Below, piece by piece: positions 17,386-57,164 of a DNA stretch of 64,000 nt (the stretch's first letter is position 1; every line of letters begins with the position of its first letter). The position numbers and the translations under genes are program-made. Under the pieces are notes generated by a model that made no database searches, had not been told where the DNA came from, and saw only the letters and a program-made list of their open reading frames with translations. This DNA comes from Blastocatellia bacterium (GTDB lineage: Bacteria > Acidobacteriota > Blastocatellia > UBA7656), in NCBI GenBank assembly GCA_036277095.1, contig DASUNP010000005.1:411775-475774 (forward strand). Direction: 5' to 3'.

Positions 17386-18189
17386 TCAACCCCGGTCGCG
17401 GCGCAACGTCAGGCCGCCGTCGACCGTGATGACCTGGCCCGTTATGTAGTTGTCAGGCTCAACGAGCAGCCTCACCACGCGAGCAGTATCTTCAGGGCGT
17501 CCGAATCTAGGAATGATCTTCTTGTCGATGTAGAAATCGTACTTGCCCGACTCTATCGATTTGACGGCCATGCCCGCGCGGTTGACGCCCGGCGCTATGA
17601 CGTTCACGCGGATGCCGCCGGGACCGCCCCACTGCTTCGCCATTATCCGCGCCGCCTGCACGAGCGCGGACTTCGGACCCGCGTAGTTTATGCTCGATTC
17701 AAATGCAGCCACAGCCTGCATCGTAGAGACCAGCACTATCGCCCCTTCGTGCCCCCGGCTATGGATTCGCGCCGCCGCCTCGCGCGCAAGCAAGACGGGC
17801 GCGACATAGTTTTTTTGAAACGAATCGTGCAGGTCTTCGTCCGTCGCTTCGTCGAACTTTACGCGCGCCGGGTCGCCCGTGAAACAGATCAGCGCGTAAA
17901 GCCCCCCGCTCAAAGAGTCGGCCACGTCGACGTAACGAGCGCGCGCCGAGGGATCAGAGATGTCACCTTCGACCAGATGTATCTCGCGCCCGAAACTGGC
18001 TCCCACGGCCTGTTTGAGGGCTTCGGCGCGCTCGCGGTCGCTGCGGTATCCGGCAACCACTGTGGCGCCGTCGCGGGCCAGGAGCGCTGTGGTCGCGGCC
18101 CCAAGACCTCCCGTGCCGCCCGCCACCAGCACGACGCGGCCCGCCAGCCCCGCGTCGTTAAAATCAAAGTTGAGTTCGCCTCGGCTCAT
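17386..18189 (-). CDS. SDR family oxidoreductase
   Basis: Rossmann motif VVLVAGGTGGLGAA. Catalytic YxxxK context in the middle. Start moved to internal Met (MSRGEL). Confidence 0.65.
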   Translation of the reverse strand: MSRGELNFDFNDAGLAGRVVLVAGGTGGLGAATTALLARDGATVVAGYRSDRERAEALKQAVGASFGREIHLVEGDISDPSARARYVDVADSLSGGLYALICFTGDPARVKFDEATDEDLHDSFQKNYVAPVLLAREAAARIHSRGHEGAIVLVSTMQAVAAFESSINYAGPKSALVQAARIMAKQWGGPGGIRVNVIAPGVNRAGMAVKSIESGKYDFYIDKKIIPRFGRPEDTARVVRLLVEPDNYITGQVITVDGGLTLRRDRG

Positions 18190-18285
18190 GTTTAAACAAT
18201 AGGTGGACTGGCGAGCGGGCCGCAAGCTAAAGGTTGAGCCGATGGTTCGACAGCCGCGCGCTTTCAGCTTATATTCTTCCTACTG

Positions 18286-19719
18286 GTGCGCTTTCATCTA
18301 TCCCAGAACGTTCGCTCGCTTGTCGGTCTGGCCGCGCTCGTCTTGATCGGGCTCGCGAGCGCGCAATTGTATGATGAAAACGCGAACCTTCTCGAAACGA
18401 GCAACATCCTCTGGTACATCACGCTGTTCCTCTTACAGTTCGTTCTCTTCATGTGCGCTAGCTGGATCGCAATCAACACACCAAAAAACGACCGGGCGAT
18501 CAAATTAATTGTGCTAGCCGTCATTCTTATCTTCTCCGTCGCGTTTCACGAGCGCCTGGCGGTCGAGACTCCTTACCTGTCGAGCGATGTTTACCGCTAC
18601 ATCTGGGACGGGCGCGTGCAGGCCGCAGGGATCAATCCTTATCTTTATATGCCCGTCGCGCAGGAGCTAGAACCCTTGCGCGACGAAAAGATATTTCCGC
18701 ACATCAACCGACCCGACTACGCCCGCACTATCTACCCGCCCACGGCGCAAGCAATCTTCTTGATAACATATCTCGTTGGCCCATCGGACGTGACGACGTT
18801 CAAAGTCACAATGTCGCTTTTTGACGTGCTTGCGATACTGGCGATAATGCTCGCGCTTGCGCGGATGAAGCTGGACCCCGCGCTTGCGATCATCTTCGCG
18901 TGGCACCCGCTGGTCATCTGGGAAGGCGCGCACAGCGGGCACATTGAATCGCTCGCGATGGCGCTGCTTGCGTTCGCGCTGCTTGCGCGCGTTTCACAAA
19001 AGCACGCGCTCACGGGATTTTTGCTCGCGCTCGCAGTGCTTACGAAATTCTACCCCGCTCTACTCCTGCCGGCCTTTCTGTTTGCAAATCCGCAGCCGGG
19101 CGTGTGGCCCAGGTTACGCGCAATCTTAACCGACAGGCGCAACATTAAAATGCTGATTGCTTTCTTCGCCACAATAGTTCTGGCTTACCTGCCTTACATC
19201 AGTGCGGGCGGGGAAGTGCTGGGCTACCTGCCCGGCTATTTGAAAGAGGAAGGCTTTGTCGAAACCGGGAGCCGCTATTTTCTGTTGGACCTGGCGCGCA
19301 AGTTCGCCGACGTTCCTACGGCTGCCTACTCGGTCACGGCTGCGGCCGCGCTCATCGGACTGGCTATTTATTTTTTGCTGAAAGAAAAGCGCGACGGCCG
19401 GGAAGTGGCTCGCGCGGCGGTCGCGCTCATAGGCTTATTCTTGATCTTGAGCACGCCGCGCTATAGCTGGTACACGGCGTGGATAATCCCTTTCTTATGC
19501 TTCGCGCCGTGCGCGGGCTGGCTCTACCTTACGGGCGCGTCAGTCTTCTTGTATTTCTTATGGCTGATACCGAGCTACCCGAACATACCCGCGTGGATAG
19601 GCGCGGCCATCTACGCGCCGGCAGTCGCGCTCCTCGTCTTAGAATTGATACTTGTTAAAAGAAGAGAGAAAGCTGTTGAGCTAAAGCCTAGCGAGGTAGT
19701 TTCTCTGCCAGGGCAATAG
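18286..19719 (+). CDS. GT87/DUF2029-type polytopic membrane glycosyltransferase (GT-C fold, polyprenol-P-sugar dependent)
   Basis: About 10 predicted TM helices. A conserved loop YRYIWDGRVQAAGINPYLYMP...RPDYARTIYPPTAQ is shared almost verbatim with the paralog at 21333..22778. Confidence 0.6.
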   Translation: MRFHLSQNVRSLVGLAALVLIGLASAQLYDENANLLETSNILWYITLFLLQFVLFMCASWIAINTPKNDRAIKLIVLAVILIFSVAFHERLAVETPYLSSDVYRYIWDGRVQAAGINPYLYMPVAQELEPLRDEKIFPHINRPDYARTIYPPTAQAIFLITYLVGPSDVTTFKVTMSLFDVLAILAIMLALARMKLDPALAIIFAWHPLVIWEGAHSGHIESLAMALLAFALLARVSQKHALTGFLLALAVLTKFYPALLLPAFLFANPQPGVWPRLRAILTDRRNIKMLIAFFATIVLAYLPYISAGGEVLGYLPGYLKEEGFVETGSRYFLLDLARKFADVPTAAYSVTAAAALIGLAIYFLLKEKRDGREVARAAVALIGLFLILSTPRYSWYTAWIIPFLCFAPCAGWLYLTGASVFLYFLWLIPSYPNIPAWIGAAIYAPAVALLVLELILVKRREKAVELKPSEVVSLPGQ

Positions 19720-20434
19720 CAGACAGACCGAACGGGAATGTCACGCGCTTAAGCAATCTGGCTTCGAGCTTGAGCGTAGCCGCGAGCCCGCGATTCATCC
19801 ATTCAGGCACGGGCTTGACGTCCGACCCTTCAGCGCCCGTGAGCCTCGATATCAGCCGGTGCGCAGTCGCCGCGCCGAACAGCAAGGTATTCGCATAGGT
19901 CGCGCGGCGCGGCCTGAGCCCCTCGGAGTCGAGCAGTTGTCTAAGCTCTCGGAGCGTGTAACGATGGCGCGTGCCTACGGCTATGTCGTGACGCCCGCGC
20001 ACCCATTCGTAAGCAGGCTCACGAATAAAGAGCAGCCCGCCGGGCTTTAATACGCGGCGCATCTCTCGAACGGCGCTTCGCGCTTCATCAAGGTTTAGCT
20101 GATAGATGACATCAAAGCAGGTCACAAGGTCGAACGCGCCCGAGATAAAAGGCAAGCTCGCAACCGACGCTACGGCGCCTGTATCCAGCCCGCGCGCGCG
20201 CCAGAACTCCGCCGCGAGCGGAGAGAGATCTACACCGAAGCAGTCCTCTGCGCCCAGGCGCTCTCTGAGCCAGGCGAGCGAATAGCCGGTCCCGCAACCT
20301 ACGTCGAGCAGGCGGAGGCTTTCATCTCTCTTCAGATGTTTGTTGAGAATCGCGGCGGTCACCGCGCGCATGCCGTCGTACCACCAGAGACGGTCTTCAA
20401 GCTCGAACATCGCGCGGTACTCTTCGCTTTGCAT
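19688..20434 (-). CDS. Class I SAM-dependent methyltransferase
   Basis: Motif I LLDVGCGTGYSLAWL. Start set at the internal ATG 20434; the track's TTG start at 20488 reads into the heptamer repeat. Confidence 0.7.
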   Translation of the reverse strand: MQSEEYRAMFELEDRLWWYDGMRAVTAAILNKHLKRDESLRLLDVGCGTGYSLAWLRERLGAEDCFGVDLSPLAAEFWRARGLDTGAVASVASLPFISGAFDLVTCFDVIYQLNLDEARSAVREMRRVLKPGGLLFIREPAYEWVRGRHDIAVGTRHRYTLRELRQLLDSEGLRPRRATYANTLLFGAATAHRLISRLTGAEGSDVKPVPEWMNRGLAATLKLEARLLKRVTFPFGLSAIALAEKLPR

Positions 20435-20480
20435 AAGAACAGGGCCATTTGGATGGCGGATTATGCGCTTCGCGCACCGC

Positions 20481-20540
20481 GATTTCAAATCTCAAATCTC
20501 AGGTCAATCCCTGACCCCTGACCCCTGGCCCCTGGCCCCC
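20481..20540. repeat. Heptamer tandem repeats: GATTTCAAATCTCAAATCTCAG then CCCTGAC x2 and CCCTGGC x2
   Basis: Direct tandem 7-mers visible in sequence. They overlap the stop and last ~11 codons of the GT2 gene (...GARGQGSGVRD*). Confidence 0.7.
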
Positions 20541-21265
20541 GTCTCGGCAAGCTGTGACTGACCTTTTGCTACGATGCGCCACCACAGTAGGCTTAAGTCT
20601 ACGAGCGTTTTGAAGAGCCGCCGGAAGTTGAAGAACTGAGATTTGCCGTAAACCCTGTGATAGTGATGGACGGGGCATTCGGCGAAACGCAGCCCCGCGT
20701 CCTGAAAGCTCTTAATCATCTCGACACAGATCGTGCCGCTTGTAGAATAGAGCCGGACGCGGTCGAAGCTCGACCTTCGGATCAAGCGGAAGTCGCAGTC
20801 TACGTCTTTGATCTTTATCCCGAACGCGAGCTTGACCGTCCAGCAATAGATATTACCGACTACGATTCGGTGAAAGGGGTCGGACCGGCTGATCTTGTAC
20901 CCGTTGACAATGTCTATGGCTTCGGTCATCAGCGGCAGGAGCTTTTCCATCTCCGAGGCGTCGTACTGCGCGTCGCCATCCGTATAGAAGATCAACTCCT
21001 TTGTCGCGCTCGCAAATCCCGTCCTCAGCGCGGTCCCGTAGCCCAGATTCGTCGGGTGGTGTATGACTCGCAGGCGCGGGTAAAGCGCCTCAAGCTCAGA
21101 AAGAATCTGCGCGGTGTTGTCGCGGCTTCCGTCGTTGATGACCAAAACTTCGTAATCGTCCGTTAGCCGTCTCAGGGTGCGGTCCGCGCTCGCGACCATG
21201 CTTGCTATCGTGCCCGCGTCGTTGTAGGCGGGAAAGAATGCGCTTATGCTCGGCTGCTTGTTCAT
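20504..21265 (-). CDS. GT2 family glycosyltransferase (polyprenol-phosphate sugar synthase / Dpm1-like)
   Basis: N-terminal GT-A signature AYNDAGTIASMV...YEVLVINDGSRDNT and DxD region YTDGDAQYD. About 250 aa. Confidence 0.75.
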   Translation of the reverse strand: MNKQPSISAFFPAYNDAGTIASMVASADRTLRRLTDDYEVLVINDGSRDNTAQILSELEALYPRLRVIHHPTNLGYGTALRTGFASATKELIFYTDGDAQYDASEMEKLLPLMTEAIDIVNGYKISRSDPFHRIVVGNIYCWTVKLAFGIKIKDVDCDFRLIRRSSFDRVRLYSTSGTICVEMIKSFQDAGLRFAECPVHHYHRVYGKSQFFNFRRLFKTLVDLSLLWWRIVAKGQSQLAETGARGQGSGVRD

Positions 21266-21303
21266 TGAGGATTAATTCTATAAGCCCGACACCCGGTCTT
21301 ACA

Positions 21304-21354
21304 AGTGCTGAGTGCTGAGTGAAAACTATTACTCAGGACTCAGCACTCAGCACT
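21304..21354. repeat. CTGAGTG-family heptamer palindrome (copy 1)
   Basis: agtgctgagtgctgagtg-aaaactatt-actcaggactcagcactcagcact. The 3' arm encodes the last residues (...EVLSAES*) and the stop of the GT87 paralog. Confidence 0.75.
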
Positions 21355-22778
21355 TCTTTCTTGCGCAGGTAATCCCACGCCAGCAGTGCGAGCGTCGGGC
21401 CGTAAAGTGATGCACCCAACCACACAGGCAAGTGAGGGTATACGTTCGGTATGTACCAGAGCAGGTAGAGCAGAATCGTCGCCCCCGTAAGATAGAGCCA
21501 GCCCGCGCGCGGCACAAAGCATAAGAAAGGGATTATCCAGGCATAGTACCAGGGGTAGCGCGGGGTCGTCAGCAGCAGGTAGAGCCCTATGAGTGCGACC
21601 GCTGCGCGGGCAACATCCGTCGCGTCGCGCTTGGGCCGCGTGATCCACCAGAGACCCAACGCGAGAAGCGCAATCGCGGCCAGGGCGACAAAAACAGCGG
21701 TCGGCAACGGCACGATTTTTTGGATGAGAGAATACAGAAAATATCGCGTGCCGCCTTCGACATAACCTTCTTCCGCAAATTCATTCGGCAAGTAGCCCAA
21801 CACTCCTCGGCCTACGCTCAGGTAAGGAATGTAGGAAGCAATAACCGTGGCGACGAATGCCGCAATCATTTTGAGATTCGGCTTGCTCAGTATTGTCGAG
21901 ACAAGCCGCCGCAGCCAGCCGATCTTTTCGTCAGTCTCATATGAAAACATCATCGCGGGGAGCAGCAGCCCTGGATAAAACTTGACCATAGCGGCCAGCC
22001 CGATCATCACTCCGGCGAGCACAGGCTTTTTATAAACGCGCGCCACGAACGCCAGCGCGAGAAATGCTATGAAGGCCGATTCGACGTGCCCGCTGTGAGC
22101 GCCTTCCCATACCAATAGCGGGTGCCACGCGAAGATGATCGCGCGCGCGGGGTTGAGGCCGGCCCTCGCCAGCACGAGCATGACCGCGAGCATTGTGAGC
22201 ATGTCGAACAACGACATCGCCACTCTGAACGCGGTGATGCTCAAAGGGTGAGCGAGGTAAATGCCCAGGTAGATCGCCTGCGCGATGGGCGGGTAAGGCG
22301 TCGGCGCGTAGTCGCTGCGATTGATGTTCGGATAAATCTTGTCTTCTCTGAGATGTGCCAGCTCCGGCGCGGAAGGAACGTAACGATACGGGTTGATTCC
22401 TGCCGCTTGAACGCGCCCGTCCCATATGTAGCGGTAGGTGTCCGTCGACAGGTATGGCCGTTTGTTGACTAGCTGAGCGCGAAAGCAGCCGGCGAAAAGA
22501 ATTATTACGCCCAGGGTGGCAAGCATTACTCCGCGCGGAAGCCCGGCGGGCATTCGAAGCACAGCGTAGCAGGCAATGAGGTAGAGAGCGAAATGACCTA
22601 TGAAGGTCATTATGTAAGCCGCTATCCATTGCGTGAACCAGTGGAGGTCGCCGCTATACAAATAGAGCGCGGCGCTCGCGAGGCCGACCAGCGCGAGCGC
22701 CAGGGGATAGCCGAAGGCCCGCGCCGAAGATTGAGTCGGATCGGCTTTCGTAAGCGGAAGGTCTGTTGCATTTAACAT
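21333..22778 (-). CDS. GT87/DUF2029-type membrane glycosyltransferase, paralog of 18286..19719
   Basis: Polytopic. Shares the YRYIWDGRVQAAGINPY...YPPIAQAIY block with the other copy. Confidence 0.6.
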   Translation of the reverse strand: MLNATDLPLTKADPTQSSARAFGYPLALALVGLASAALYLYSGDLHWFTQWIAAYIMTFIGHFALYLIACYAVLRMPAGLPRGVMLATLGVIILFAGCFRAQLVNKRPYLSTDTYRYIWDGRVQAAGINPYRYVPSAPELAHLREDKIYPNINRSDYAPTPYPPIAQAIYLGIYLAHPLSITAFRVAMSLFDMLTMLAVMLVLARAGLNPARAIIFAWHPLLVWEGAHSGHVESAFIAFLALAFVARVYKKPVLAGVMIGLAAMVKFYPGLLLPAMMFSYETDEKIGWLRRLVSTILSKPNLKMIAAFVATVIASYIPYLSVGRGVLGYLPNEFAEEGYVEGGTRYFLYSLIQKIVPLPTAVFVALAAIALLALGLWWITRPKRDATDVARAAVALIGLYLLLTTPRYPWYYAWIIPFLCFVPRAGWLYLTGATILLYLLWYIPNVYPHLPVWLGASLYGPTLALLAWDYLRKKEVLSAES

Positions 22779-23473
22779 TACTTATGAAATGCGTCGGCGG
22801 CGGGCCAACGCGACAGCATAAAGCGCCTGGTGTTTTCGGCCCGCGCCGGATCGCGCCCGTCTTCTGCAAGCTCGCGGCGTAGCCACCGAAGCGCGTCGAC
22901 GTTGTCGACGTCATACCACTCCGGGAGCAAGACGACTTCAAGCCCGATCTCGCGCGCGCGCGCGATGGTTTCGGCTAGCACCAGCTCCGTAGACCACGTG
23001 ATGCGGTCAAACAACTGACGGTGAGGCCGCTTGATGCCTATCAAATAGTACCCGCCGTCGACCGCCGGACCCAGCACTACGCGGTCGCCCGCGCGCCCGA
23101 GCTCTTCAAACGCTCTTACGAGATACTCGCGCGGAAGTGTCGGGCTGTCCGCGTCCATGATTGCAGCCGAACTGTAGCCTTCGCCGAGCAGGTCCGAGAG
23201 CGCGTGAAAGAGCTTATCGCCAAAGCTCGCGCCGCGCTGCGCAAGCATCCGCGCACCGTTCGACAACATGCCGTCGAAAAAATGTTCGGAGCCAATGGGT
23301 GTGTACGATATGACCGCGTCGGTCGCAGGGACGCCCCCGATCAACGCGAGAGTGTCTTTGAGGAAGCAACGGTACAACTCTGTCGCATCGTCTTTTGATA
23401 ACAGCGAATGCAATCTGGTCTTCACCGTCCCGGGCTGTGGCGCTTTGGCCGCTACTGCCAGTGCTTGTCGCAT
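22778..23473 (-). CDS. DUF2064 family protein (MobA-like nucleotidyltransferase fold; TIGR04282-type transferase)
   Basis: Start LAVAAKAPQPGTVKTRL, then ...IMDADSPTL...VVLGPAVDGGYYLIG...WSTELVLAET. Matches my recollection of the DUF2064 family. Start overlaps the upstream stop (ATGA). Confidence 0.55.
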   Translation of the reverse strand: MRQALAVAAKAPQPGTVKTRLHSLLSKDDATELYRCFLKDTLALIGGVPATDAVISYTPIGSEHFFDGMLSNGARMLAQRGASFGDKLFHALSDLLGEGYSSAAIMDADSPTLPREYLVRAFEELGRAGDRVVLGPAVDGGYYLIGIKRPHRQLFDRITWSTELVLAETIARAREIGLEVVLLPEWYDVDNVDALRWLRRELAEDGRDPARAENTRRFMLSRWPAADAFHK

Positions 23474-23482
23474 CCGTCAGGT

Positions 23483-24430
23483 TCAGCTCTTTCTTAGAAT
23501 CTGGTACAGCTTCACATTCTCTGCATCTGCCTCATCAAGCATTTCCAACTGAATTGTTACGTGCCCTATGTTGAAGTCATGCTGCAGTCGCTCTTGCAGG
23601 GCGACGAGCGTCTCGCGATGCCTGGCGCCCGGCACCACCGTGACGTGCGCCGATAGCGCGTCTTTCCCCGAGCTTATCGTCCAGACGTGCAGGTCGTGAA
23701 CGTTCGTAACGCCCTGGACTTCGTGCATCGCCGCGATCACCGCGCGCACGTTGATGTGAGACGGCGTCCCTTCGAGAAGTATGTTCACGGACTCGCGTAT
23801 GAGATGCCACGAGCTGTAGATTATCAGCAACGACATAAAGATGCTGATAATCGGGTCGACTATCGTCCACCCCCACCGCCAGATTATTACCCCCGCCGCG
23901 ATGGCCCCGACAGAGCCGAGCGCGTCGCCTAACACATGCAGGAACGCGGCGCGCACGTTCAGATTCTCTTCCGATGCCGAGTGCAACAACCACGCGCTGA
24001 TTATGTTGATGACCAGACCGCCCGAGGCTATCCATATCACCTCTAAGCTCAGAATCTCGTCCGCGCGCTTGGGAGTCTTTATCCGCTCGAAGGCTTCGTA
24101 AAAGATCAGTAGAGAGATGACGACCAGCGCCACTCCGTTTGCGAGCGCGGCCAGTATCTCAAGACGGTAATAGCCGTACGTCTTGCTCGTAGTGACGGGG
24201 CGCGCGGCGAACCACAACGCGAGCATTGCCAGAAGGAGCGCGGCGACATCGGCGAGCATGTGCCCGGCGTCCGACAGCAGCGCGAGAGAGTTTGTCAAAA
24301 ACCCGCCTATCGCCTCGGCGAGCATGTAGACGACGGTCAGGCCGAGCACGAACTTGAGCCTGCGCCGGCTCGCGCTCGCGTGGGAGTGCGCGTGTTTGTG
24401 ATCGTGTTTATGCCCCTCGTGCTCGCTCAT
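23483..24430 (-). CDS. Cation diffusion facilitator (CzcD/ZitB-type) metal efflux transporter
   Basis: His-rich N-terminus MSEHEGHKHDHKHAHSHA. Six TM helices. C-terminal cytoplasmic domain HDLHVWTISSG. Confidence 0.8.
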   Translation of the reverse strand: MSEHEGHKHDHKHAHSHASASRRRLKFVLGLTVVYMLAEAIGGFLTNSLALLSDAGHMLADVAALLLAMLALWFAARPVTTSKTYGYYRLEILAALANGVALVVISLLIFYEAFERIKTPKRADEILSLEVIWIASGGLVINIISAWLLHSASEENLNVRAAFLHVLGDALGSVGAIAAGVIIWRWGWTIVDPIISIFMSLLIIYSSWHLIRESVNILLEGTPSHINVRAVIAAMHEVQGVTNVHDLHVWTISSGKDALSAHVTVVPGARHRETLVALQERLQHDFNIGHVTIQLEMLDEADAENVKLYQILRKS

Positions 24431-24458
24431 GTGGAACTCGTCTATTTCTGGAACTCGT

Positions 24459-25286
24459 CTATTTCACCCCGAGCAGCTCGACTTCGAAGATCAGAGTCGC
24501 ATTAGGCGGGATGACTCCGCCCGCGCCCCTCGGACCGTAGCCGAGATGCGAAGGGATGATCAGCTTGCGCTTGCCGCCGACCTTCATCGTGATGACTCCC
24601 TCGTCCCAACCTCGTATGACCTGGCCGACTCCGATGACGAAGGTGAACGGCTCGCCGCGCTCATGCGAGCTGTCAAACTTTTTGCCGTCTTCGAGCGTGC
24701 CGGTGTAATGAACGGTGACCTGCTGGCCGACTTCGGGTGTCTCTCCTGTGCCTACGGTCAGGTCGCTATATTTGAGTCCTGAAGCTGTCGTCACCACTCC
24801 GTTCTCCTCCGAGGTTATTGCCAGGTTTGAGATCTGTGTGCCTTGCCAGGAGACTATCTGCCAACGGCCCTGCCGTTTTGCCCAGACCTGCGTGTGATTG
24901 ATCCTGCGCTTGCCGCCGAAAACGATCTGGCCGGTTATTATCGCCGTGTTTCCGTAAAAGCGCACCTTCTGATTCTCGACCACCATCGGCTCGCGGTTAG
25001 GCACTTGAGACCGCGCAGGCTCAAGGGCTTTATTCTTATCGCCGACCATCCCGTCGTGGCTTATGCCTACGTAATCGTCGGCTATTAAAGAACCGAGCAC
25101 GTTCGCGTCGCGGCGGCGCAACGCCGCTATCCACTCTTGTTGAAGCTTCAGCACGGCCTGTTCTTCGTTGACCGTAGCGCGAGGGCCGGGGGCCGTGCGC
25201 GGTTTTCGGCTCCTGGTCTGCGCCCCGGCGGGCGAAATAATTGCGACCGCAATGAGCGCGGCGAGAATCGGTCTTTTTATCTGCAT
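24459..25286 (-). CDS. Secreted FKBP-type peptidyl-prolyl isomerase with N-terminal SnoaL-like/DUF4440 domain
   Basis: Signal peptide [24 protein letters not shown]-terminal FKBP motifs [31 protein letters not shown] and [14 protein letters not shown]. The track start at 25367 reads through the TTTGAAATTTCAAAT repeat. Confidence 0.75.
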
Positions 25287-25300
25287 AACTCCGTCTCTAT

Positions 25301-25333
25301 AATTTGAAATTTCAAATTTGAAATCTGAGATTC
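25301..25333. repeat. TTTCAAAT-family palindromic repeat (aatttgaaatttcaaatttgaaatctgagattc)
   Basis: Lies between the radical SAM stop and the FKBP start. Shares the GATTTCAAATCTCA core with elements at 20481, 52538 and 55829. Confidence 0.65.
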
Positions 25334-26383
25334 TTAGAGGCTCCACCGCACGCCGCAGTTTTTGCACGCGCTCGGCGGCTCATCGCTTTGAAGGTCGCTT
25401 CTGAATCTCTTGTAAAGGTGATCGTTCCATATGTCCATCAGCGGCCGCTCGAAAGCGTTGCCGAGGACGTACGAGGTGTAATCGCGCTCGGCGAAAGGAG
25501 CGATGCAGCACGGCAGCACGTTGCCGTTCGCCGTGATGTACATCAGCGTCCAGGGCCTCCGGCACAGGCTCCAGGGCTGGTCGTCTTCTTTAGGCATCAA
25601 GCTCTGTTCGGGCGAAGCGGCTCCAGACGCGTTGAAAACAATTCCAAGCTCGGATGCCAGTGCGTGCGCCTCTTCGATCACGCGCAACTCGTCTTCTCTA
25701 GCCGACGCGAACAGCGCCTGGTCGGGCCGCGCCAGGCCCTGCCCCTGCTGGTGGTCGTCAAAAAATACGAGCCGTTGCAGATAGACTTCGCCCACTCCCA
25801 TATCGCGCGCGAGCAGGACGAAGGCTTTAAGCTGGTCGAGCGTCTCTTTCAACCCGACCAGCCACAGCGAAAGTCTCGGCTGCTCGACACGCATCTCTTT
25901 TTGAAGCGCGACGAACTCGCGCACGTTCTTGACTATAAGGTTGAAGCGCGAGAGCCCGCGAACCATCGCGAAGGTTTCGGCGTCAGCCGCGTCGAGTGAG
26001 ATCCGATATTCGTCGAGGCCGCTGGCGATCAAATGTTGCTGCACGTGCGGGTAGAGCATCGTGCCGTTTGAATTAAAGAGCACGTAAACGCCGCGGTCTT
26101 TCAAGTAGCCGATCATGCGAGGCAGCTCTTTATTTATCAGGGGCTCGCCTATGCCGTGCAGGACCGCGCGCTTGAGGCCCGGCACCTGATCGACGATCAT
26201 CTTCATCTTTTCAAAAGAGAGGTCGGCGGGCCGCTCTACTGAAGCGAACGTGCGCGGGCAGTGCTGGCAAAGAAGATTGCAGCGGTTAGTAGTCTCAAGA
26301 TAGAGGCAGACCGGAGGGTTTGAAACAATCGGCCCTAGAGTCTTTACTTGTTTGAAGTAAGGCTTGCTCTCGATTGTCGCCAT
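25334..26383 (-). CDS. Radical SAM protein with partial SPASM/twitch-like C-terminal Cys cluster
   Basis: CNLLCQHCP (CxxxCxxC) at residue 35. GIGEPL motif. C-terminal cysteines C-x12-G-x5-CC ... CKNC. Confidence 0.7.
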
Positions 26384-26421
26384 AGCGCAAAAGTTTAGCT
26401 TGCGCTACTCCGCCTCAGCAA

Positions 26422-26503
26422 GTCCTGAGTGCTGAGTCCTGAGTCCTGAGTGAAGAATTAGAGGCAGTGTTCTTAAGTTTTTTACTCAGCACTCAGCACT
26501 CAT
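26422..26503. repeat. CTGAGTG-family heptamer palindrome (copy 2)
   Basis: gtcctgagtgctgagtcctgagtcctgagtga ...loop... actcagcactcagcactcat. The BshC stop codon lies in the 3' arm. Confidence 0.75.
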
Positions 26504-28203
26504 TTAGCGTTGACGACTTGAGATGCGACGCCGCCCAGGTAGACCAGCTTGTGATTCGAATAGCCTATCTCAGCCGCGTTATACAGATCGTTAAACAGCG
26601 TAGGGCCGTAACGCGACAGGAAGTAGTAGACGTTAAGCTCGCGCTCTTGAAAATTCTTATCGGGCATCAATGTGAGATACGCCCTTTCGATCTGGCGATA
26701 GACGGTCTCTTCCCTGCGCGCGCTTGAATGAATGAAGCGCGTGCGAAGGTGCTCGATCTGGTAAAGGATCTTTGCGCGCGCGCGCTTGAGCGAGACGGAA
26801 AGCGTGCGGTCGGCGCGGCTGATGGTGTCTTCGAGCTTATTGAGCTGCTCGGTCAGTATTCGCTCGGTTTCGGCGAATGTGTTAGCCGTCTCGCGGTCCA
26901 GGCTCTGCTCGACGACTTTCGTCATCGCCGGGTGCAGCCCCTCGAAAAAGTCGCGAAGCGCGAGGCCGTGCTTCTTCATGGTCTTCTGATGCCGGCCTTC
27001 GACTATCGTGAAGCTCGCGCGGGGCAGCACGCAAGGCTTGGCGCGACCGAGCGTTTCGTAAACGGCTCCGAGTTGCGCGAAGTAAGCTATCTCCGCCGGG
27101 CCTCCTACGTAAGCAGCCGTAGGCAGCAGGTAATCTTGAACTACGGGCCTGAGCGTCACGTTGGGGCTGAAACAGTTGGGGCAGCGGCGCGCAAGCTCGA
27201 CAAGCTCTTCGCGGCTGAACGAGCGGTCCGAGCCTTTGAGATGAAAGCGCCCGTCCTGTTCAACCATAGCGACGCGGCGGCCTTCGTCGAGTATAAACAG
27301 CGGCACCATGTCTTCAGAGACATGAATTTGCGCGTGATAACCCGCCGCTTCAAGCTCGCGGCTGCGCCCGACAAGCGCGCGGACGATCTCTGTCGAATGC
27401 TCAAGGGATTCGGCGTAAAGCGGTGCCGCGACCTGCTTCAACTGCTCGTCTTGAGGATCGAGCAGCACGACCCCGTAATCTCGAAACAGCCGCGCCATCA
27501 ATCGCGCGAACGCCTCGGCGAACCCTACGCCGTGTTGATAACTTTCGCGCAAATCGCGTTCGAGGTCTGCCACGAATTCCGAGGGCGGGAGCGCGTTGAT
27601 GAACTCCGTGATCTTCTCGTCAATCCCTTCGCAGAGCGTGATGTGGCCCACGGGGGAGTCCGGCTTGTGCTCGCACGCCTCGTAGCGCACGTCTTTCAAA
27701 TGGCCTTCGCGGTCGATCAGGCGTGTGTGATTGACCTCTTCGTAATCGTGGTCCTCGCTCGCCACCCAGAAGACCGGCACGGCCTCGACTCCCTGCTCGC
27801 GAAGACATGCGGCGAGCTTGACTACAGTCAGCGCTTTATGAATCGTGTAAAGCGGCCCGGTAAAAAGTCCCGCCTGCTGGCCTGTGACAATGGCGACCGA
27901 GCCTGGGCGGCGGAGCATATCGATGTGTTTGAAAGTAAGCTCGGGCGATCCTGCGCGGCGGTTTATGCGTTCGAGCGCGTCGGCTACATGGTCGCGGTCG
28001 CGCTGCTCGGCCCCTACGCGGCGAGCGTGTTCGGCCAGTGGCGAGATTGAGCGGCCGCCGTCGCTATAAAACCTGGAGACGCTATCAAAGTTGTAAAGGA
28101 AATCGTTATAGAGTCGTGACGTGCGCGGGATGTCCGTGAAGCGGATCGCGTCTGACAGACGGTCGGCGGCGGCTTCGAGGTCCTTACAGTCAGCTTCTTT
28201 CAT
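26500..28203 (-). CDS. bshC: Bacillithiol biosynthesis cysteine-adding enzyme BshC
   Basis: VTGQQAGLFTGPLYTIHKAL, VFWVASEDHDYEEVNH and C-terminal YYFLSRYGP match BshC (B. subtilis YllA: GGQQAGLLTGPLYTIHKI, IFWVAGEDHDLDEINF, YYLNRYGPKFF). Length 567 aa. Confidence 0.8.
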   Translation of the reverse strand: MKEADCKDLEAAADRLSDAIRFTDIPRTSRLYNDFLYNFDSVSRFYSDGGRSISPLAEHARRVGAEQRDRDHVADALERINRRAGSPELTFKHIDMLRRPGSVAIVTGQQAGLFTGPLYTIHKALTVVKLAACLREQGVEAVPVFWVASEDHDYEEVNHTRLIDREGHLKDVRYEACEHKPDSPVGHITLCEGIDEKITEFINALPPSEFVADLERDLRESYQHGVGFAEAFARLMARLFRDYGVVLLDPQDEQLKQVAAPLYAESLEHSTEIVRALVGRSRELEAAGYHAQIHVSEDMVPLFILDEGRRVAMVEQDGRFHLKGSDRSFSREELVELARRCPNCFSPNVTLRPVVQDYLLPTAAYVGGPAEIAYFAQLGAVYETLGRAKPCVLPRASFTIVEGRHQKTMKKHGLALRDFFEGLHPAMTKVVEQSLDRETANTFAETERILTEQLNKLEDTISRADRTLSVSLKRARAKILYQIEHLRTRFIHSSARREETVYRQIERAYLTLMPDKNFQERELNVYYFLSRYGPTLFNDLYNAAEIGYSNHKLVYLGGVASQVVNAK

Positions 28204-35723: not shown

Positions 35724-37448
35724 GTGAAAAAGCTAATCACTCGAATACCCGTCTCGGTTTTGCTGATCGTTACGGTGTCGCTCTCGGCTAGCCTGTCGGT
35801 CGCGGCCCCGCCCCAGGGAGCCGGGCGCGACTGGCCCACTTACGGCGGCACCTTGGACAGTCAGCGATACTCCTCTCTCACTCAGATCAACCGCGCGAAC
35901 GCGTCTCGACTCCAGGTCGCGTGGACTTTTCAAACGGGCTTCTCGACGCCGCAAACGTCATTCGAGTGTACGCCCATAGTCGTCGACGGCGTGATGTACG
36001 TGACTTCGGCCAAAGGCGACGTGTTTGCGCTCCGGGCCGACACGGGAGAGATGCTCTGGCAATACGATCCGCTCGTCGACCTCGCAAGCGTGAAGCTTTG
36101 CTGCGGCATCATCAATCGTGGCGTCGCCGTCAGCCGGGGGCGCGTCTTTATCGCGACGCTCGACGCGCGACTCATAGCCCTGGACGCTCGCACGGGCCAG
36201 GTCGTCAAATCATTCGGCGACGGCGGCGAAGTCAAGATCGCCGACTACACGAAGGGCTACAGCGAGACGGCTGCGCCCGTGGTCTTCGGCGGCAAGATAC
36301 TCATAGGCGTGGCGGGGGGCGAGTTTGAAACGCGAGGCTTCTTTAGCGCTTACGACGAGCAGACGGGGAAGCTTATCTGGCGCTGGCACACCATCCCCGC
36401 TCCCGGTGAGCCGGGCAGCGACACGTGGCCCGACACGGGCGTCTACAAAGTCGGAGGCGCGACGGCCTGGATGACCGCCGCAGTCGATGAGGCCAACAAT
36501 CAGGTGATCTTTGGGACCGGCAATCCCAACCCTGACTTCGACGGGCGCGCGCGTCCGGGCGACAACCTCTACAGTTGTTCAATCGTCGCCTTGGACATCA
36601 CGACTGGAAAGCTCCGGTGGTACTTCCAGCAGGTGAAGCACGATCTTTGGGATTACGATCAATCGTCGTCTCCCGTACTGTTCGACTCTACGATCAATGG
36701 CCGAAGGGTAGAGGCCGTGGGCGCCGCCGGCAAGATAGGCTGGTTCTACATACTCGACCGCAAGACGGGAAAATCCTTGCTCCCGATGCGCGAGATAGAA
36801 GTCCCGCAAGACGCGCGCCAGGCCACAGCCCGGACCCAGGTCGTCCCGGCTGTGCCGCCGTTCGTAGCTCACAAAAACATATTCGCGCCGCCTACGAAAG
36901 CGGGCGTATTGATCTCGCCGGGCCTGAGCGGCGGCAGCGAGTGGAGCCCTCTCGCCTACAGCCCGCAAACGCGCTTTGCCTACATCGCCGCCGTCGACAA
37001 GCCGATGTTTTATACGGTCGAGACGCCCAACCCATTCGGCCTGGTGCTGGGCGGGCTTGCGGTCGTCCCTCCAGAGGTCGAGCCAGTGGGCGCGTTCGTA
37101 GCGATAGATGTGAACACGGGCCTCGTGCGCTGGCGCACGGCGACGAAGCCTCACCCGGTTGGCGGGCTTTGCGCTACAGCGGGAGGTCTGGTCTTCGCGG
37201 GCGAATCGAACGGGATGTTTAATGCGCTGGACGCCCAGACGGGCAAGCGGCTCTGGCAGTTTCAATGCGGCGCGGGTGTCAACGCCGCACCCATGACTTA
37301 TGAGGTGAACGGGCGGCAGTATGTCGCAGTCGCCGCGGGCGGGCTCGCGATGGAGAGCTTGACCAGCGGCCAGGCGGGGATTACCAACTTCCGTCGCGGC
37401 AGCGCCTTGTTCGTATTCGCCTTGCCTGCCACAGAAAGACAGTCCTGA
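35724..37448 (+). CDS. PQQ-dependent dehydrogenase (quinoprotein alcohol/sugar dehydrogenase beta-propeller), secreted
   Basis: Signal peptide and repeated PQQ beta-propeller W-motifs (TGEMLWQYD, TGKLIWRWH, TGKLRWYFQ, TGKRLWQF). GTG start with GGAGAG SD. Confidence 0.75.
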   Translation: MKKLITRIPVSVLLIVTVSLSASLSVAAPPQGAGRDWPTYGGTLDSQRYSSLTQINRANASRLQVAWTFQTGFSTPQTSFECTPIVVDGVMYVTSAKGDVFALRADTGEMLWQYDPLVDLASVKLCCGIINRGVAVSRGRVFIATLDARLIALDARTGQVVKSFGDGGEVKIADYTKGYSETAAPVVFGGKILIGVAGGEFETRGFFSAYDEQTGKLIWRWHTIPAPGEPGSDTWPDTGVYKVGGATAWMTAAVDEANNQVIFGTGNPNPDFDGRARPGDNLYSCSIVALDITTGKLRWYFQQVKHDLWDYDQSSSPVLFDSTINGRRVEAVGAAGKIGWFYILDRKTGKSLLPMREIEVPQDARQATARTQVVPAVPPFVAHKNIFAPPTKAGVLISPGLSGGSEWSPLAYSPQTRFAYIAAVDKPMFYTVETPNPFGLVLGGLAVVPPEVEPVGAFVAIDVNTGLVRWRTATKPHPVGGLCATAGGLVFAGESNGMFNALDAQTGKRLWQFQCGAGVNAAPMTYEVNGRQYVAVAAGGLAMESLTSGQAGITNFRRGSALFVFALPATERQS

Positions 37449-37515
37449 GTGCTGAGTGCTGAGTGAAAGAAAAAGGACGGTTCGCCTATCAGGTTTTTAC
37501 TCAGCACTCAGCACT
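37442..37515. repeat. CTGAGTG-family heptamer palindrome (copy 3)
   Basis: gtcctgagtgctgagtgctgagtg - A-run...T-run loop - tactcagcactcagcact. The first heptamer contains the PQQ-dehydrogenase stop codon. Confidence 0.75.
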
Positions 37516-43754: not shown

Positions 43755-43850
43755 GTCCTGAGTGCTGAGTCCTGAGTGCTGAGTAAAAACCCTTATCGGG
43801 GCGCTGTCCTTTTTCTTTCACTCAGCACTCAGGACTCAGCACTCAGGACT
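43755..43850. repeat. CTGAGTG-family heptamer palindrome (copy 4)
   Basis: gtcctgagtgctgagtcctgagtgctgagt - A-run...T-run loop - cactcagcactcaggactcagcactcaggact. Lies 7 nt after the SPFH stop. Confidence 0.75.
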
Positions 43851-56861: not shown

Positions 56862-56975
56862 GATTTTAGATTTTAGATTTTGGATTTTGGATTGCCGATG
56901 CCGGTTCCTGAATCCAAAATCTAAAATCGCGGCGCGCGTATGCGCATCATCCGCCACGAAAATCCAAAATCGAAA
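56862..56975. repeat. TTTTAGA/TTTTGGA heptamer-repeat palindrome in the divergent region between the transglycosylase and ftsY
   Basis: gattttagattttagattttggattttggatt ... aatccaaaatctaaaatc ... aaaatccaaaatcgaaa. Confidence 0.7.
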
Positions 56976-57164
56976 GGCCTTGGCTTTGCGACCCAGGATC
57001 ACTCCTGGTGTGCCTTTATCGGTGATTTTCTTACAGCTAACTACGCGGCCAGTCTAATATGCTAGTCGAGCTTTGTCAATAATTAGATATGGTTGACGCT
57101 CGTTTCAATCGGGTGCTAACCTTTATGGTTCTAACTCTAAAGGATATTTTTATGAAGCTTAACT

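Follow-up and report, generated by a model that had tools for sequence, protein, structure and literature searches.

The genes flagged in the window, which is the whole 64-kb stretch of DNA analysed here, belong to a gene cassette that is widespread in soil bacteria and unstudied so far, and the conserved core of this cassette, DUF2064–GT87–radical SAM/SPASM–GT2, differs from the set of genes that was flagged. On balance, we favour the reading that the region is the Blastocatellia version of this uncharacterised envelope-glycosylation cassette, merged with an ArnC-like GT2–MTase–GT87-B module, and that it would place a modified sugar on polyprenyl phosphate and deliver it to an envelope acceptor. 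In the literature, we found no publication on the DUF2064–GT87–rSAM–GT2 cassette.

Gene layout of the cluster

All five open reading frames of the initial annotation (18286-23473) were found as claimed. Two putative polytopic GT-C glycosyltransferases, GT87-A (18286-19719, + strand, 477 aa) and GT87-B (21333-22778, − strand, 481 aa), bracket a class I SAM-dependent methyltransferase (MTase; 19688-20488, − strand) and an ArnC/Dpm1-like candidate polyprenyl-phosphate sugar synthase (GT2; 20504-21265, − strand, 253 aa), and a DUF2064/TIGR04282 protein with a CofC/MobA-like nucleotide-diphospho-sugar transferase fold (22778-23473, − strand, 231 aa) adjoins them. DUF2064 had been described as following in the same orientation, which holds for GT87-B, GT2 and MTase but not for GT87-A, which lies on the opposite strand; within the minus-strand unit, DUF2064 is the first gene and not the last. 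GT87-A converges on MTase and their 3' ends overlap by 32 nt, while the DUF2064 stop codon and the GT87-B start overlap by 1 nt. Judging from a comparison with a 253-aa ortholog, the true start of MTase is probably the ATG at 20434 (248 aa).

The flagged range misses one component. A radical SAM enzyme with a SPASM/twitch C-terminal domain (rSAM; 25334-26383, − strand, 349 aa), which lies outside it, is the conserved cassette partner that had been overlooked. Two genes, for an FKBP and for a CDF transporter, stand between rSAM and DUF2064, which speaks against the favoured reading; both are found alike in relatives with and without the cassette. A BshC gene lies upstream of rSAM.

Conservation of the cassette across phyla

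Synteny proved to be conserved in relatives, with DUF2064 strongly linked to GT87 and a GT2. The core DUF2064–GT87–rSAM–GT2 occurs in Acidobacteriota, Alphaproteobacteria and Verrucomicrobiota, the relatives in other phyla having been retrieved with a GT87 loop motif (described below) as the search pattern. Viewed from rSAM, across 77 metagenome loci outside Blastocatellia, which are not phylogenetically independent, the gene directly upstream is GT87 in 41/45 and the gene directly downstream is a GT2 in 50/54, and DUF2064 lies upstream in 29/31. From the GT87 side, again outside Blastocatellia, DUF2064 lies directly upstream in almost all of ~35 loci and rSAM adjoins GT87 in 22 of the 30 testable loci. 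Independent gene calls with Pfam labels read MT–DUF2064–GT87–rSAM–GT2 in locus L165 and MT–DUF2064–GT87–GT2 in L166; the core is often accompanied by a methyltransferase in Acidobacteriota and by a PNP-family nucleosidase in Alphaproteobacteria. In the cassettes of other phyla, the rSAM encoded between GT87 and GT2 is 55-60% identical to the window rSAM. Blastocatellia gain or lose rSAM and DUF2064 jointly at a single fixed position in the chromosome, both being present in 6 cases, neither in 19, DUF2064 only in 1 and rSAM only in 0 (Fisher p = 3e-5, uncorrected for phylogeny).

Origin of the two GT87 copies

GT87-A and GT87-B are 53% identical over 449 aa, and their sequences indicate that they derive from two different ancestral modules, combined in the window lineage. 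In the tree, GT87-A falls with the DUF2064-linked GT87 copies of other Blastocatellia, and GT87-B with GT2–MT-linked copies in a clade with 100% bootstrap; the 100%-supported split leaves GT87-A outside the B-type clade, as it does the copies next to DUF2064 in L035, L041, L043, L061, L070 and L012, and the monophyly of this A-type set itself has a bootstrap of just 59%. GT87-B is orthologous to the GT87 that other Blastocatellia carry in an ArnC-like GT2–MTase–GT87 module. The window GT2 is 78-94% identical to the GT2 of such modules in L002, L005, L006, L007 and L085, but its identity to the GT2 encoded in cassettes of other phyla is just 26-29%. Likewise, MTase always stands after the ArnC-like GT2 in relatives (60-89% identity), whereas it shares just 27% identity with the methyltransferase that precedes DUF2064 in cassettes of the Acidobacteriaceae type. 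Because identity to the cassette GT2 and MTase is just 26-29%, the window GT2 and MTase may belong to an unrelated pathway.

The alternative that survives best takes up this point and sees two unrelated neighbours without shared intermediates, namely a DUF2064/rSAM/GT87-A system and an Arn-like amino-sugar system (GT2–MTase–GT87-B). The separation of the GT87 copies in the tree speaks for it, as does the fact that the window GT2 and MTase are not orthologous to those of the cassette, and three MAGs hold both modules at separate loci (L006/L061, L008/L070, L009/L041). In addition, a perfect 18-bp unstranded hairpin of GTGCTGA heptamers (21303-21355; repeat I7) extends across the stop codon of GT87-B and probably acts as a transcript end or stabiliser that sets GT87-B apart from GT2–MTase; together with a promoter-like site that comes after it (21304->21275), it suggests separate transcription units. 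The separate loci in the MAGs and this boundary support the two-module origin in the favoured reading as well. However, DUF2064 and rSAM are present in every genome showing GT2–MT–GT87-B, that is, in the three MAG pairs and in the window lineage (L005, L007, L085). Moreover, no GT2 lies within 10 kb of the Blastocatellia loci that combine DUF2064, rSAM and GT87-A; this counts against the favoured reading and also leaves the ArnC-like GT2 as the sole candidate donor synthase seen. It is to GT87-B, not to GT87-A, that DUF2064 is translationally coupled in the window lineage. We consider two independent systems possible but rather unlikely.

Donor synthase and GT-C transferases

The window GT2 matches PF00535 at 96.7 bits. 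Its best NCBIfam matches are ArnC, PgfS, AglJ, PpgS and dolichyl-P hexose transferase, led by ArnC PRK10714 at 74.8 bits (cutoff 529), and its best PDB match is also an ArnC (9hwj, 77 bits, residues 6-225). ArnC and Dpm1 are enzymes that make polyprenyl-phosphate sugars, and the proposal that a Dpm1-like GT2 makes a polyprenol-P-sugar donor agrees with this grouping, ArnC being the best match.

Both GT87 proteins pass PF09594 (GT87-A 49.7 bits, GT87-B 43.8 bits, cutoff 25). The AF2 model of GT87-B (pLDDT 77.7, pTM 0.82) was matched by Foldseek to PIG-U, GPI mannosyltransferase I, ALG3, PimE (9dm7), ALG6 and ArnT, which include enzymes using polyprenyl or dolichyl phosphate sugars. These matches to the model support a GT-C fold for the GT87 proteins and bear out the GT-C-like nature first ascribed to the pair. 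The near-identical loop reported for the two proteins is present as an exact 17-mer, YRYIWDGRVQAAGINPY, but it is not special to these paralogs, being the family-wide consensus around invariant D113, Y115, R116, Y117, W119 and D120 (alignment A1), all of which are kept in GT87-A. Gene conversion was ruled out as the source of the shared motif because no near-identical DNA stretch was found there between the two genes, implying that the conservation is selective; the best inverted repeat between them (74% over 187 nt) lies away from the motif. The invariant residues D113 and Y117 are as far apart as D58 and Y62, the catalytic residues of PimE (PMC12041525).

In related genomes, the GT2–MTase–GT87-B module lies elsewhere and adjoins a sugar dehydratase and an aminotransferase; in L002 its neighbours are an SDR of dehydratase/decarboxylase type, an aminotransferase resembling PseC/ArnB, an ArnT-like GT-C and a flippase-like protein. 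These L002 flanks, the ArnC matches of the window GT2 in NCBIfam and among solved structures, and the logic of a GT2 donor synthase paired with a GT-C transferase all resemble the ArnC/ArnT pathway, which synthesises undecaprenyl-phosphate L-Ara4FN and transfers it to lipid A. Unlike that pathway, the window has a GT2 that scores far below the ArnC cutoff and is shorter than the solved ArnC chains (253 aa vs 322-363 aa), a transferase of GT87 type and not ArnT (GT83), and a methyltransferase where Arn has formyltransferase and deformylase steps; homologs of ArnA, ArnB and ArnT were not found in the 64 kb. Three-component periplasmic glycosylation by Gtr proteins (GtrA flippase, GtrB GT2, GtrC GT-C) is similar in that a cytoplasmic GT2 makes a polyprenyl-P-sugar that a polytopic GT-C uses outside the membrane, and GtrB sll0501 is a PDB match of the window GT2 (37 bits). 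The window cluster differs in its extra DUF2064, rSAM and MTase and in having no GtrA-like gene, for which the intergenic gaps of 17386-26383 are too short.

A mycobacterial-type mannolipid/mannan pathway, with GT2 as polyprenyl-phosphate-mannose synthase and the GT87 proteins as PimE/MptB-like alpha-mannosyltransferases, appears improbable. The GT87 proteins do share the GT-C fold and the Pfam families of the Ppm1/PimE/MptB system, PF09594 directly and PF26314 (MptA_B_family) through their homologs, which JGI names 'alpha-1,6-mannosyltransferase'; the fold matches include PimE, PIG-M and ALG3, and the GT87 Asp opens the first extracytoplasmic helix with a Tyr four residues on, as D58 and Y62 do in PimE. 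However, MptB is matched weakly (23.4 bits) and under its cutoff of 40, a profile search of PDB sequences, including the solved PimE, gave no GT87 match, and ArnC fits the GT2 better than DPMS (77 vs 45 bits). An amino or deoxy sugar is suggested by the aminotransferase and dehydratase beside the L002 GT2 ortholog. The host, an acidobacterium, is diderm, and the linkage to DUF2064 and rSAM, which would be left without a role, has no mycobacterial counterpart.

The radical SAM enzyme

The rSAM protein is of SPASM type, matches PF04055 and PF13186, and no other ORF in the window has a CX3CX2C motif. None of the NCBIfam cutoffs is reached, the best match being TIGR04317 (134.8 bits vs 380). Its structure model, of moderate confidence (pLDDT 69.9), has DesII as best fold match (8hzy, E 1.4e-11, TM 0.65), followed by SuiB, SkfB, PqqE, BlsE, viperin, anSME, MoaA and BtrN, with AbmM and AprD4 also among the top matches. 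The likeness to DesII, BtrN, BlsE and AprD4 extends to a gene context of sugar metabolism and, for BtrN, to the C-terminal auxiliary-cluster domain, which matches by sequence (E 1e-10), but the identity is just 16-18% and the peptide maturases SuiB, SkfB, PqqE and anSME fit about as well as DesII. Among cassette loci, rSAM was found in 22 and an NAD-dependent sugar epimerase/dehydratase in 5, with both in 0. This mutually exclusive alternation, together with DesII as the best fold, fits a nucleotide-sugar substrate.

It seems very improbable that rSAM is a peptide or protein maturase whose product GT87 glycosylates. The maturase folds named above and the nearest NCBIfam models, which are called 'maturases' (TIGR04317, TIGR04311), would accord with it, but the cassette genes overlap by 1-4 nt in L067, so that a gene for a precursor peptide would not fit between them, a sugar epimerase/dehydratase takes turns with rSAM, and the sugar and nucleotide enzymes DesII, BlsE, viperin, BtrN, AbmM and AprD4 are top matches as well.

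Proposed pathway

In the merged cassette that we favour, the part contributed by the widespread cassette in the window lineage would extend from rSAM to DUF2064, with GT87-A as the ancestral partner. DUF2064, with its CofC/MobA-like fold, would activate a phosphorylated sugar with a nucleotide, rSAM would remodel the nucleotide sugar in a DesII/BtrN-type reaction, and MTase would decorate the remodelled sugar. The sugar, thus made in the cytoplasm, would be loaded by GT2 on polyprenyl phosphate at the inner membrane face. Once the lipid-linked sugar has been flipped, a step for which the cluster contains no flippase gene, GT87-A and GT87-B would hand the sugar over in the periplasm to one acceptor or two, which may be a lipid, LPS or a glycan; the invariant Asp in their PYLSxDxYRY loop would serve as catalytic base.

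DUF2064 and the arsenosugar label

DUF2064 matches PF09837 (98.1 bits) and PDB 3cgx (E 8e-29), stays under the cutoff of TIGR03552 (CofC) at 35.5 bits, and passes TIGR04282 (171.5 bits vs cutoff 134). We take TIGR04282 and TIGR04283 to be the former 'rSAM/selenodomain-associated transferases 1 and 2', whose triad with TIGR04167 is now named arsenosugar biosynthesis; going by the family names and TIGRFAMs descriptions, the members of the classical triad are co-located. The trio of MTase, GT2 and DUF2064 had been likened to the TIGR04282/TIGR04283 pairing, which stands for DUF2064 but not for GT2 (33.2 bits vs a TIGR04283 cutoff of 182), and the initial annotation as a whole is partly supported. 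As in the triad, a TIGR04282 protein here accompanies a GT2 and a radical SAM enzyme; unlike in the triad, the cassette GT2 is AglJ/Dpm1/ArnC-like, the rSAM is SPASM/twitch-type and not ArsS-type, and a membrane transferase of the GT-C type joins them almost constantly. MTase matches Methyltransf_11 at 77.8 bits and reaches no NCBIfam cutoff, the best match being the DVU_1556 family (63.6 bits vs 155). We know of no member with a known substrate in either the DUF2064 family or the window-type rSAM family.

Arsenosugar biosynthesis as read from the NCBIfam names, with DUF2064 and GT2 acting beside a dimethylarsenite-adenosylating radical SAM enzyme and an arsenite methyltransferase, deserves hardly any credence. 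In its favour, the NCBI name of TIGR04282, 'arsenosugar biosynthesis glycosyltransferase', also stands on the records of homologs, the region does contain genes for a radical SAM enzyme and a methyltransferase, and the MTase upstream of DUF2064 in Acidobacteriaceae matches ArsM-type models best, though weakly (70.8 bits vs 510). Against it, the cassette GT2 of other phyla also falls below the TIGR04283 cutoff (49.5 and 57.2 bits), TIGR04167 is absent from the best 25 NCBIfam families of rSAM, no MTase reaches the ArsM cutoff, the 64 kb contain no second rSAM ORF, ars genes number 0/10 among the genes scanned in and around the cluster, and the proposed route has no step for a membrane transferase of the GT-C type. 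The database label "arsenosugar biosynthesis" is without support in the window, where nothing arsenic-related was found.

Hairpins at gene ends

The window contains four heptamer-repeat hairpins, each at a gene 3' end. A second one near the cluster (26422-26499, unstranded) lies between the BshC stop and the rSAM start, and the 99-nt stretch that contains it (26412-26510) has an MFE of -42 kcal/mol. This hairpin forms the upstream boundary of the rSAM…GT87-B unit, and the same hairpin 16-mer is found just after BshC in the relative L005.

Gene organization of the cluster

The five genes of the predicted glycan cluster, including a GT87 pair that brackets a methyltransferase and a GT2 glycosyltransferase as the initial annotation had it, are all present as open reading frames with Pfam support. 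GT87-A (18286-19719, plus strand, 477 aa) is convergent with a class I methyltransferase (MTase; 19688-20488, minus strand, probable start at 20434) and lies on the strand opposite to the other four genes, which include GT2 (20504-21265, minus strand, 253 aa), GT87-B (21333-22778, minus strand, 481 aa) and a DUF2064 protein (22778-23473, minus strand, 231 aa) that passes PF09837. DUF2064 had been described as following the others in the same orientation; it does share the minus strand with GT87-B, GT2 and MTase, but it heads this unit, its stop codon overlapping the GT87-B start, and GT87-A is on the other strand. The window also encodes a radical SAM protein (rSAM; 25334-26383, minus strand) outside the range first flagged. 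Judged by best hits, the source organism is a member of the Blastocatellia (Acidobacteriota).

A cassette conserved across phyla

Computational analysis established the family and fold assignments of these proteins and a widespread, tight linkage of DUF2064, GT87, rSAM and a Dpm1/ArnC-type GT2. Scanning genomes with the GT87 alignment yielded 187 relatives, spread over Acidobacteriota, Alphaproteobacteria and Verrucomicrobiota; from these, 80 loci were kept, in which the window proteins were mapped, all open reading frames were clustered and the representatives were scanned against Pfam and NCBIfam (loci of relatives from this and the metagenome scan carry L numbers). Outside Blastocatellia the recurrent order is DUF2064–GT87–radical SAM/SPASM–GT2, and this cassette was seen in Stellaceae, Hyphomicrobiaceae, Acidobacteriaceae (among them Granulicella mallensis and a Terriglobus), Pyrinomonadaceae and Chthoniobacterales; in one such locus, L067, its genes overlap by 1-4 nt. 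A metagenome scan with the rSAM alignment gave at least 536 confirmed relatives, and among the 77 non-Blastocatellia loci kept, GT87 is immediately upstream of rSAM in 41/45 testable loci, DUF2064 is upstream in 29/31 and GT2 is immediately downstream in 50/54. Consistent with this, independently called genes bearing precomputed Pfam labels read MTase–DUF2064–GT87–rSAM–GT2 in L165 and MTase–DUF2064–GT87–GT2 in L166. Conserved synteny of DUF2064, GT87 and GT2, which the initial annotation had named as a check, is seen from both the GT87 and the rSAM sides, with rSAM as a further core member. By the numbers of relatives, at least 536 for rSAM in metagenomes and 187 for GT87 in genomes, the cassette is common in soil bacteria.

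The cassette comes in two flavours, in which rSAM alternates with a sugar epimerase/dehydratase. Among 30 scorable non-Blastocatellia genome loci, 22 carry rSAM, five have an NAD-dependent sugar epimerase/dehydratase instead, three have neither and none (0/30) has both. Of the 22 rSAM-type cassettes, 17 encode a PNP_UDP_1 nucleosidase/phosphorylase (PNP) upstream, and most have a downstream gene for a 4-TM protein that matches no Pfam family. PNP is absent from all five epimerase-type cassettes, four of which have an MTase upstream of DUF2064, and it occurs without rSAM only once (L069) in the genome loci scored. Homologs of the PNP and 4-TM genes that alphaproteobacterial cassettes carry were not found in the window.

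Two proteins were seen 3' of GT2 in these cassettes. One is the 4-TM protein, c22, a conserved membrane protein of ~215 aa with ~4 TM helices (counted by eye) in alphaproteobacterial cassettes (L054 13043-13690, L067 12983-13633 and ~20 other cassette loci); it has no Pfam or NCBIfam match and is a candidate flippase or membrane partner. The other, directly 3' of GT2 in some cassettes (L058 12970-15036, L089 3753-4421, L124 2520-4031), is a second, much larger rSAM protein of 688 aa, in which residues 445-585 make up the Radical_SAM domain.

The radical SAM enzyme

The window rSAM is 55-60% identical to the cassette rSAM of other phyla and is the only open reading frame with a CX3CX2C motif in the 64-kb window. 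This motif (C35, C39 and C42), together with a C-terminal Cys-rich auxiliary-cluster domain (C274, C292, C340 and C343 invariant, C293 nearly so), places it in the SPASM/twitch subfamily (PF04055, 53.8 bits; PF13186, 65 bits). No curated cutoff of a named rSAM family (TIGR04317 W-cofactor maturase, PqqE, HpnH, MftC and others) was reached: the window protein scores at best 134.8 bits against 380 for TIGR04317 and 71.8 against 381 for PqqE, and the L067 cassette rSAM scores 29.6 against 225 for HpnH. A structure model built from an alignment of database homologs, of moderate quality (pLDDT 69.9), matches DesII best, followed by SuiB, SkfB, PqqE, BlsE, viperin, anSME, MoaA and BtrN, the last of which also matches the C-terminal domain by sequence. 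DesII is a radical SAM enzyme that acts on a TDP-amino-sugar.

Merging of two modules in Blastocatellia

In Blastocatellia the genes stand at a site with the stable order BshC–(rSAM)–FKBP–CDF–(DUF2064)–GT87–SDR–M28, where rSAM and DUF2064 are gained and lost jointly: both are present in 6 loci and both absent in 19, with DUF2064 alone in 1 and rSAM alone in 0 (Fisher p = 3e-5, uncorrected for the relatedness of the loci). The 19 loci without DUF2064 and rSAM still have FKBP and the CDF transporter at this site, and the neighbouring SDR (17386-18225) and M28 peptidase are likewise present with or without them; because they are there either way, these four are not part of the system.

The window cluster originated from two modules, the cassette and a module of the order GT2–MTase–GT87. 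The window GT2 shares 78-94% identity, and its MTase 60-89%, with the counterparts in the GT2–MTase–GT87 module. With the GT2 and MTase of the cross-phylum cassette the identity is just 26-29%, and orthology to these was rejected. When the two GT87 copies were placed in a neighbour-joining tree with 100 bootstraps, they fell in different groups separated by a 100%-supported split. GT87-B groups at 100% support with the GT87 proteins from GT2–MTase–GT87 modules (L002, L006, L008, L009), within a larger B-type clade, also with 100% support, that holds lone CDF–GT87–SDR copies as well. GT87-A lies outside the B-type clade with the DUF2064-adjacent copies of L035, L041, L043, L061, L070 and L012, the monophyly of this A-type set having only 59% bootstrap support. 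In three metagenome-assembled genomes (MAGs) the two modules are on different contigs (L006/L061, L008/L070 and L009/L041), and the merged order, DUF2064–GT87-B–GT2–MTase and then the inverted GT87-A, is found in the window, L005, L007 and L085; L001 probably also belongs to the merged lineage.

At L002, an SDR of the 4,6-dehydratase or UDP-4-keto-pentose-synthase type and a PseC/ArnB-like aminotransferase come before the GT2–MTase–GT87 module, and the opposite strand close by encodes an ArnT-like GT-C and a flippase-like protein. This neighbourhood resembles an Arn-type amino-sugar pathway; no homolog of its dehydratase, aminotransferase, ArnT-like or flippase-like genes was found in the window.

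Several features of the Blastocatellia site were observed in passing. A secreted protein of 685-733 aa with no Pfam match is encoded between GT87 and SDR in many Blastocatellia (L004 9469-11526, minus strand; L013; L014; ~10 other loci) and is absent from the window. The FKBP gene (24459-25367, minus strand, GTG start at 25367) encodes an N-terminal DUF4440/SnoaL-like domain and a C-terminal FKBP domain; as annotated it overlaps the 3' end of rSAM by 34 nt, and since the L001 ortholog has 273 aa against 302 aa here, its true start is probably further downstream. A homolog of BshC, the bacillithiol cysteine-adding enzyme (26500-28203, minus strand; PF10079 in orthologs), adjoins the locus across Blastocatellia, and its conservation hints at bacillithiol-type thiol metabolism in this class. 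Several MAG contigs labelled 'uncultured Clostridia bacterium' (L008, L011, L023, L025, L032, L070) carry the Blastocatellia-specific BshC–CDF–GT87–SDR–M28 synteny at 60-80% protein identity, and their labels are probably wrong.

The GT87 paralogs are GT-C enzymes with a conserved loop

Both GT87 proteins pass PF09594 (GT87-A, 49.7 bits; GT87-B, 43.8 bits; cutoff 25) and are 53% identical over 449 aa. The loop that they had been noted to share, YRYIWDGRVQAAGINPY, is indeed present in each, and it is the consensus of the whole GT87 family, with D113, Y115, R116, Y117, W119 and D120 invariant in an alignment of 21 sequences. Gene conversion between the copies as the source of the identical 17-mer is ruled out, because no near-identical DNA was found between the two genes and the motif is family-wide; judged from the alignment, it is probably a conserved active-site loop and not the trace of a recent exchange.

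The GT87 profile had no match at E ≤ 1 among the sequences of solved structures, and so the fold was judged on a predicted structure. The AF2 model of GT87-B (pLDDT 77.7, pTM 0.82) has the predicted polytopic GT-C fold and matches PIG-U, PIG-M (GPI mannosyltransferase I), ALG3, PimE, ALG6 and ArnT in Foldseek with probability 1.00 throughout and target-normalised TM scores of 0.37-0.64. All of these but the non-catalytic PIG-U are GT-C enzymes whose sugar donors are linked to polyprenyl or dolichyl phosphate. In the model and alignment, the first extracytoplasmic helix (residues 112-125) starts at the invariant D113, with Y117 four residues on. In PimE, the catalytic D58 is at the tip of the first juxtamembrane helix and is stabilised by Y62 (PMC12041525); D113/Y117 resemble this pair in spacing. 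From the ArnC-like GT2 and the L002 context, the GT87 donor may not be polyprenyl-phosphate-mannose.

GT2, DUF2064 and the arsenosugar label

The initial annotation compared the MTase, GT2 and DUF2064 trio to the arsenosugar-type pairing of TIGR04283 with TIGR04282, of which only the DUF2064 half held. The DUF2064 protein belongs to TIGR04282 (171.5 bits, cutoff 134), as does that of the L067 cassette (147.9 bits). Its best structure match is 3cgx (E 8e-29), a structural genomics entry named 'putative nucleotide-diphospho-sugar transferase', and it matches the CofC model weakly. The window GT2 fails TIGR04283 (33.2 bits, cutoff 182), and the cassette GT2s of L067 and L077 are also under this cutoff (49.5 and 57.2 bits). 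The TIGR04282 partnership with a TIGR04283 GT2 and an ArsS-type (TIGR04167) rSAM was not found in the window, whose sole rSAM is of the SPASM type and does not have TIGR04167 among its 25 best NCBIfam families; DUF2064 is thus common to the cluster and that triad, but the other two features fail here. No evidence of arsenic chemistry was found in the window, and the cassette loci examined are tied to arsenic by the TIGR04282 name alone. A soil-metagenome study reads TIGR04282 'arsenosugar biosynthesis' as a marker of arsenic stress (PMC11237643); because of this tie by name alone, such use of TIGR04282 is doubtful, and in practice so are arsenic inferences drawn from it in soil metagenomics. 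Our literature search found no publication using the term DUF2064, few papers citing TIGR04282 or TIGR04167, none of them a study of the protein, and nothing relevant on TIGR04283, PF09837 and GT87 in Acidobacteria.

The function group first proposed for GT2, a Dpm1-like maker of a polyprenol-phosphate sugar, is supported, although its family differs from TIGR04283. Its best NCBIfam matches, all under their equivalog cutoffs, are ArnC, PgfS, AglJ, PpgS and dolichyl-phosphate hexose transferase, plus one to the N-terminal part of PgaC. The top match is ArnC (NF007986, undecaprenyl-phosphate Ara4FN transferase), and since its 74.8 bits are far under the cutoff of 529, the likeness is at the family level only. 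Among solved structures ArnC is again the best match (9hwj, 77 bits over residues 6-225), ahead of chondroitin synthase, DPMS and GtrB. With best matches of the ArnC/PgfS/AglJ/PpgS type and to 9hwj, the window GT2 is a candidate polyprenyl-phosphate sugar synthase; the GT2 of the cross-phylum cassette is AglJ/Dpm1-like.

Proposed pathway

We propose a pathway that starts with the activation of a sugar in the cytoplasm, for which DUF2064 is the probable nucleotidyltransferase. The activated sugar would be remodelled, either by rSAM or, where a cassette lacks rSAM, by an SDR enzyme, and it would also be methylated. GT2 would load it on polyprenyl phosphate, and once the lipid-linked sugar is flipped, the GT87 enzymes would pass it on to an acceptor in the envelope, with the two paralogs adding two residues or serving two donors or acceptors. 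Pfs-type nucleosidases clear 5'-deoxyadenosine, and given this established role, the alphaproteobacterial PNP would most simply be a 5'-deoxyadenosine-clearing helper for rSAM.

Alternatively, the cassette sugar could itself come from the 5'-deoxyadenosyl part of SAM, by analogy with the hopanoid, futalosine and arsenosugar routes. In that case rSAM would adenosylate a substrate, the PNP-family enzyme would phosphorolyse off adenine to give a 5-substituted ribose-1-phosphate, DUF2064 would turn this into a nucleotide sugar, GT2 would load it on polyprenyl phosphate and GT87 would install it on the envelope. The distribution of PNP, with rSAM in 17/22 rSAM-type and in 0/5 epimerase-type cassettes, fits such a route, but clearance of inhibitory 5'-deoxyadenosine is the simpler explanation and the window has no such PNP gene, and we consider this origin of the sugar very improbable. 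If true, it would add a new, SAM-derived class of glycan modification to the envelopes of soil diderms.

The pathway that we favour, in which an activated sugar is remodelled and passed through a lipid carrier, combines a GT2 donor synthase with a GT-C transferase, a logic that is familiar: the cluster would work like ArnC/ArnT, Ppm1/PimE and GtrB/GtrC, but its proteins fall under none of their equivalog definitions. Nor was the GtrA-like small flippase of the Gtr system found here, where no intergenic gap between 17386 and 26383 reaches 120 nt. In the literature searched we found no description of a nearly constant four-gene unit that adds DUF2064 and a highly conserved rSAM (55-60% identity across phyla) to this logic. 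If the model is right, it would represent a new modified-sugar decoration of the envelope in abundant, poorly studied soil bacteria and would offer a first way into the function of DUF2064. Work in culture may be able to test the hypothesis, because one cassette locus (L081, with the order MTase–DUF2064–GT87–GT2–epimerase) is from Granulicella mallensis X5P3, which is a strain and not a MAG designation.

Transcription units and RNA elements

A REP-like hairpin family with arms of tandem GTSCTGA heptamers has four copies in the window (21303-21355, 26422-26499, 37442-37514 and 43755-43849), each at or just past a stop codon, and the folded segments containing them have MFEs of -32 to -67 kcal/mol. 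The heptamer-hairpin 16-mer has 16 matches in the window against 0.01 expected, and it also occurs after BshC in L005 and once in L042. Since the copy at 26422-26499 lies between BshC and rSAM, and that at 21303-21355 spans the GT87-B stop and is followed by a promoter-like site, the arrangement suggests that rSAM–FKBP–CDF–DUF2064–GT87-B form one transcript and GT2–MTase another. Scans for intrinsic terminators and promoter consensus were barely over the shuffled expectation and give hints only.

An Rfam scan of the window found no riboswitch or known RNA in the cluster, the only match in the window being a c-di-GMP-I aptamer at 56943-57024 (minus strand; 35.5 bits, gathering score 35). It lies upstream of a gene for a secreted SLT-like lytic transglycosylase (55882-56703, minus strand), identified by eye from the translation, and 3' of the latter is a large open reading frame (53747-55684, minus strand) whose translation has, by eye, the look of an amidase_3-type cell-wall hydrolase. 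This arrangement would put peptidoglycan remodelling under c-di-GMP control.
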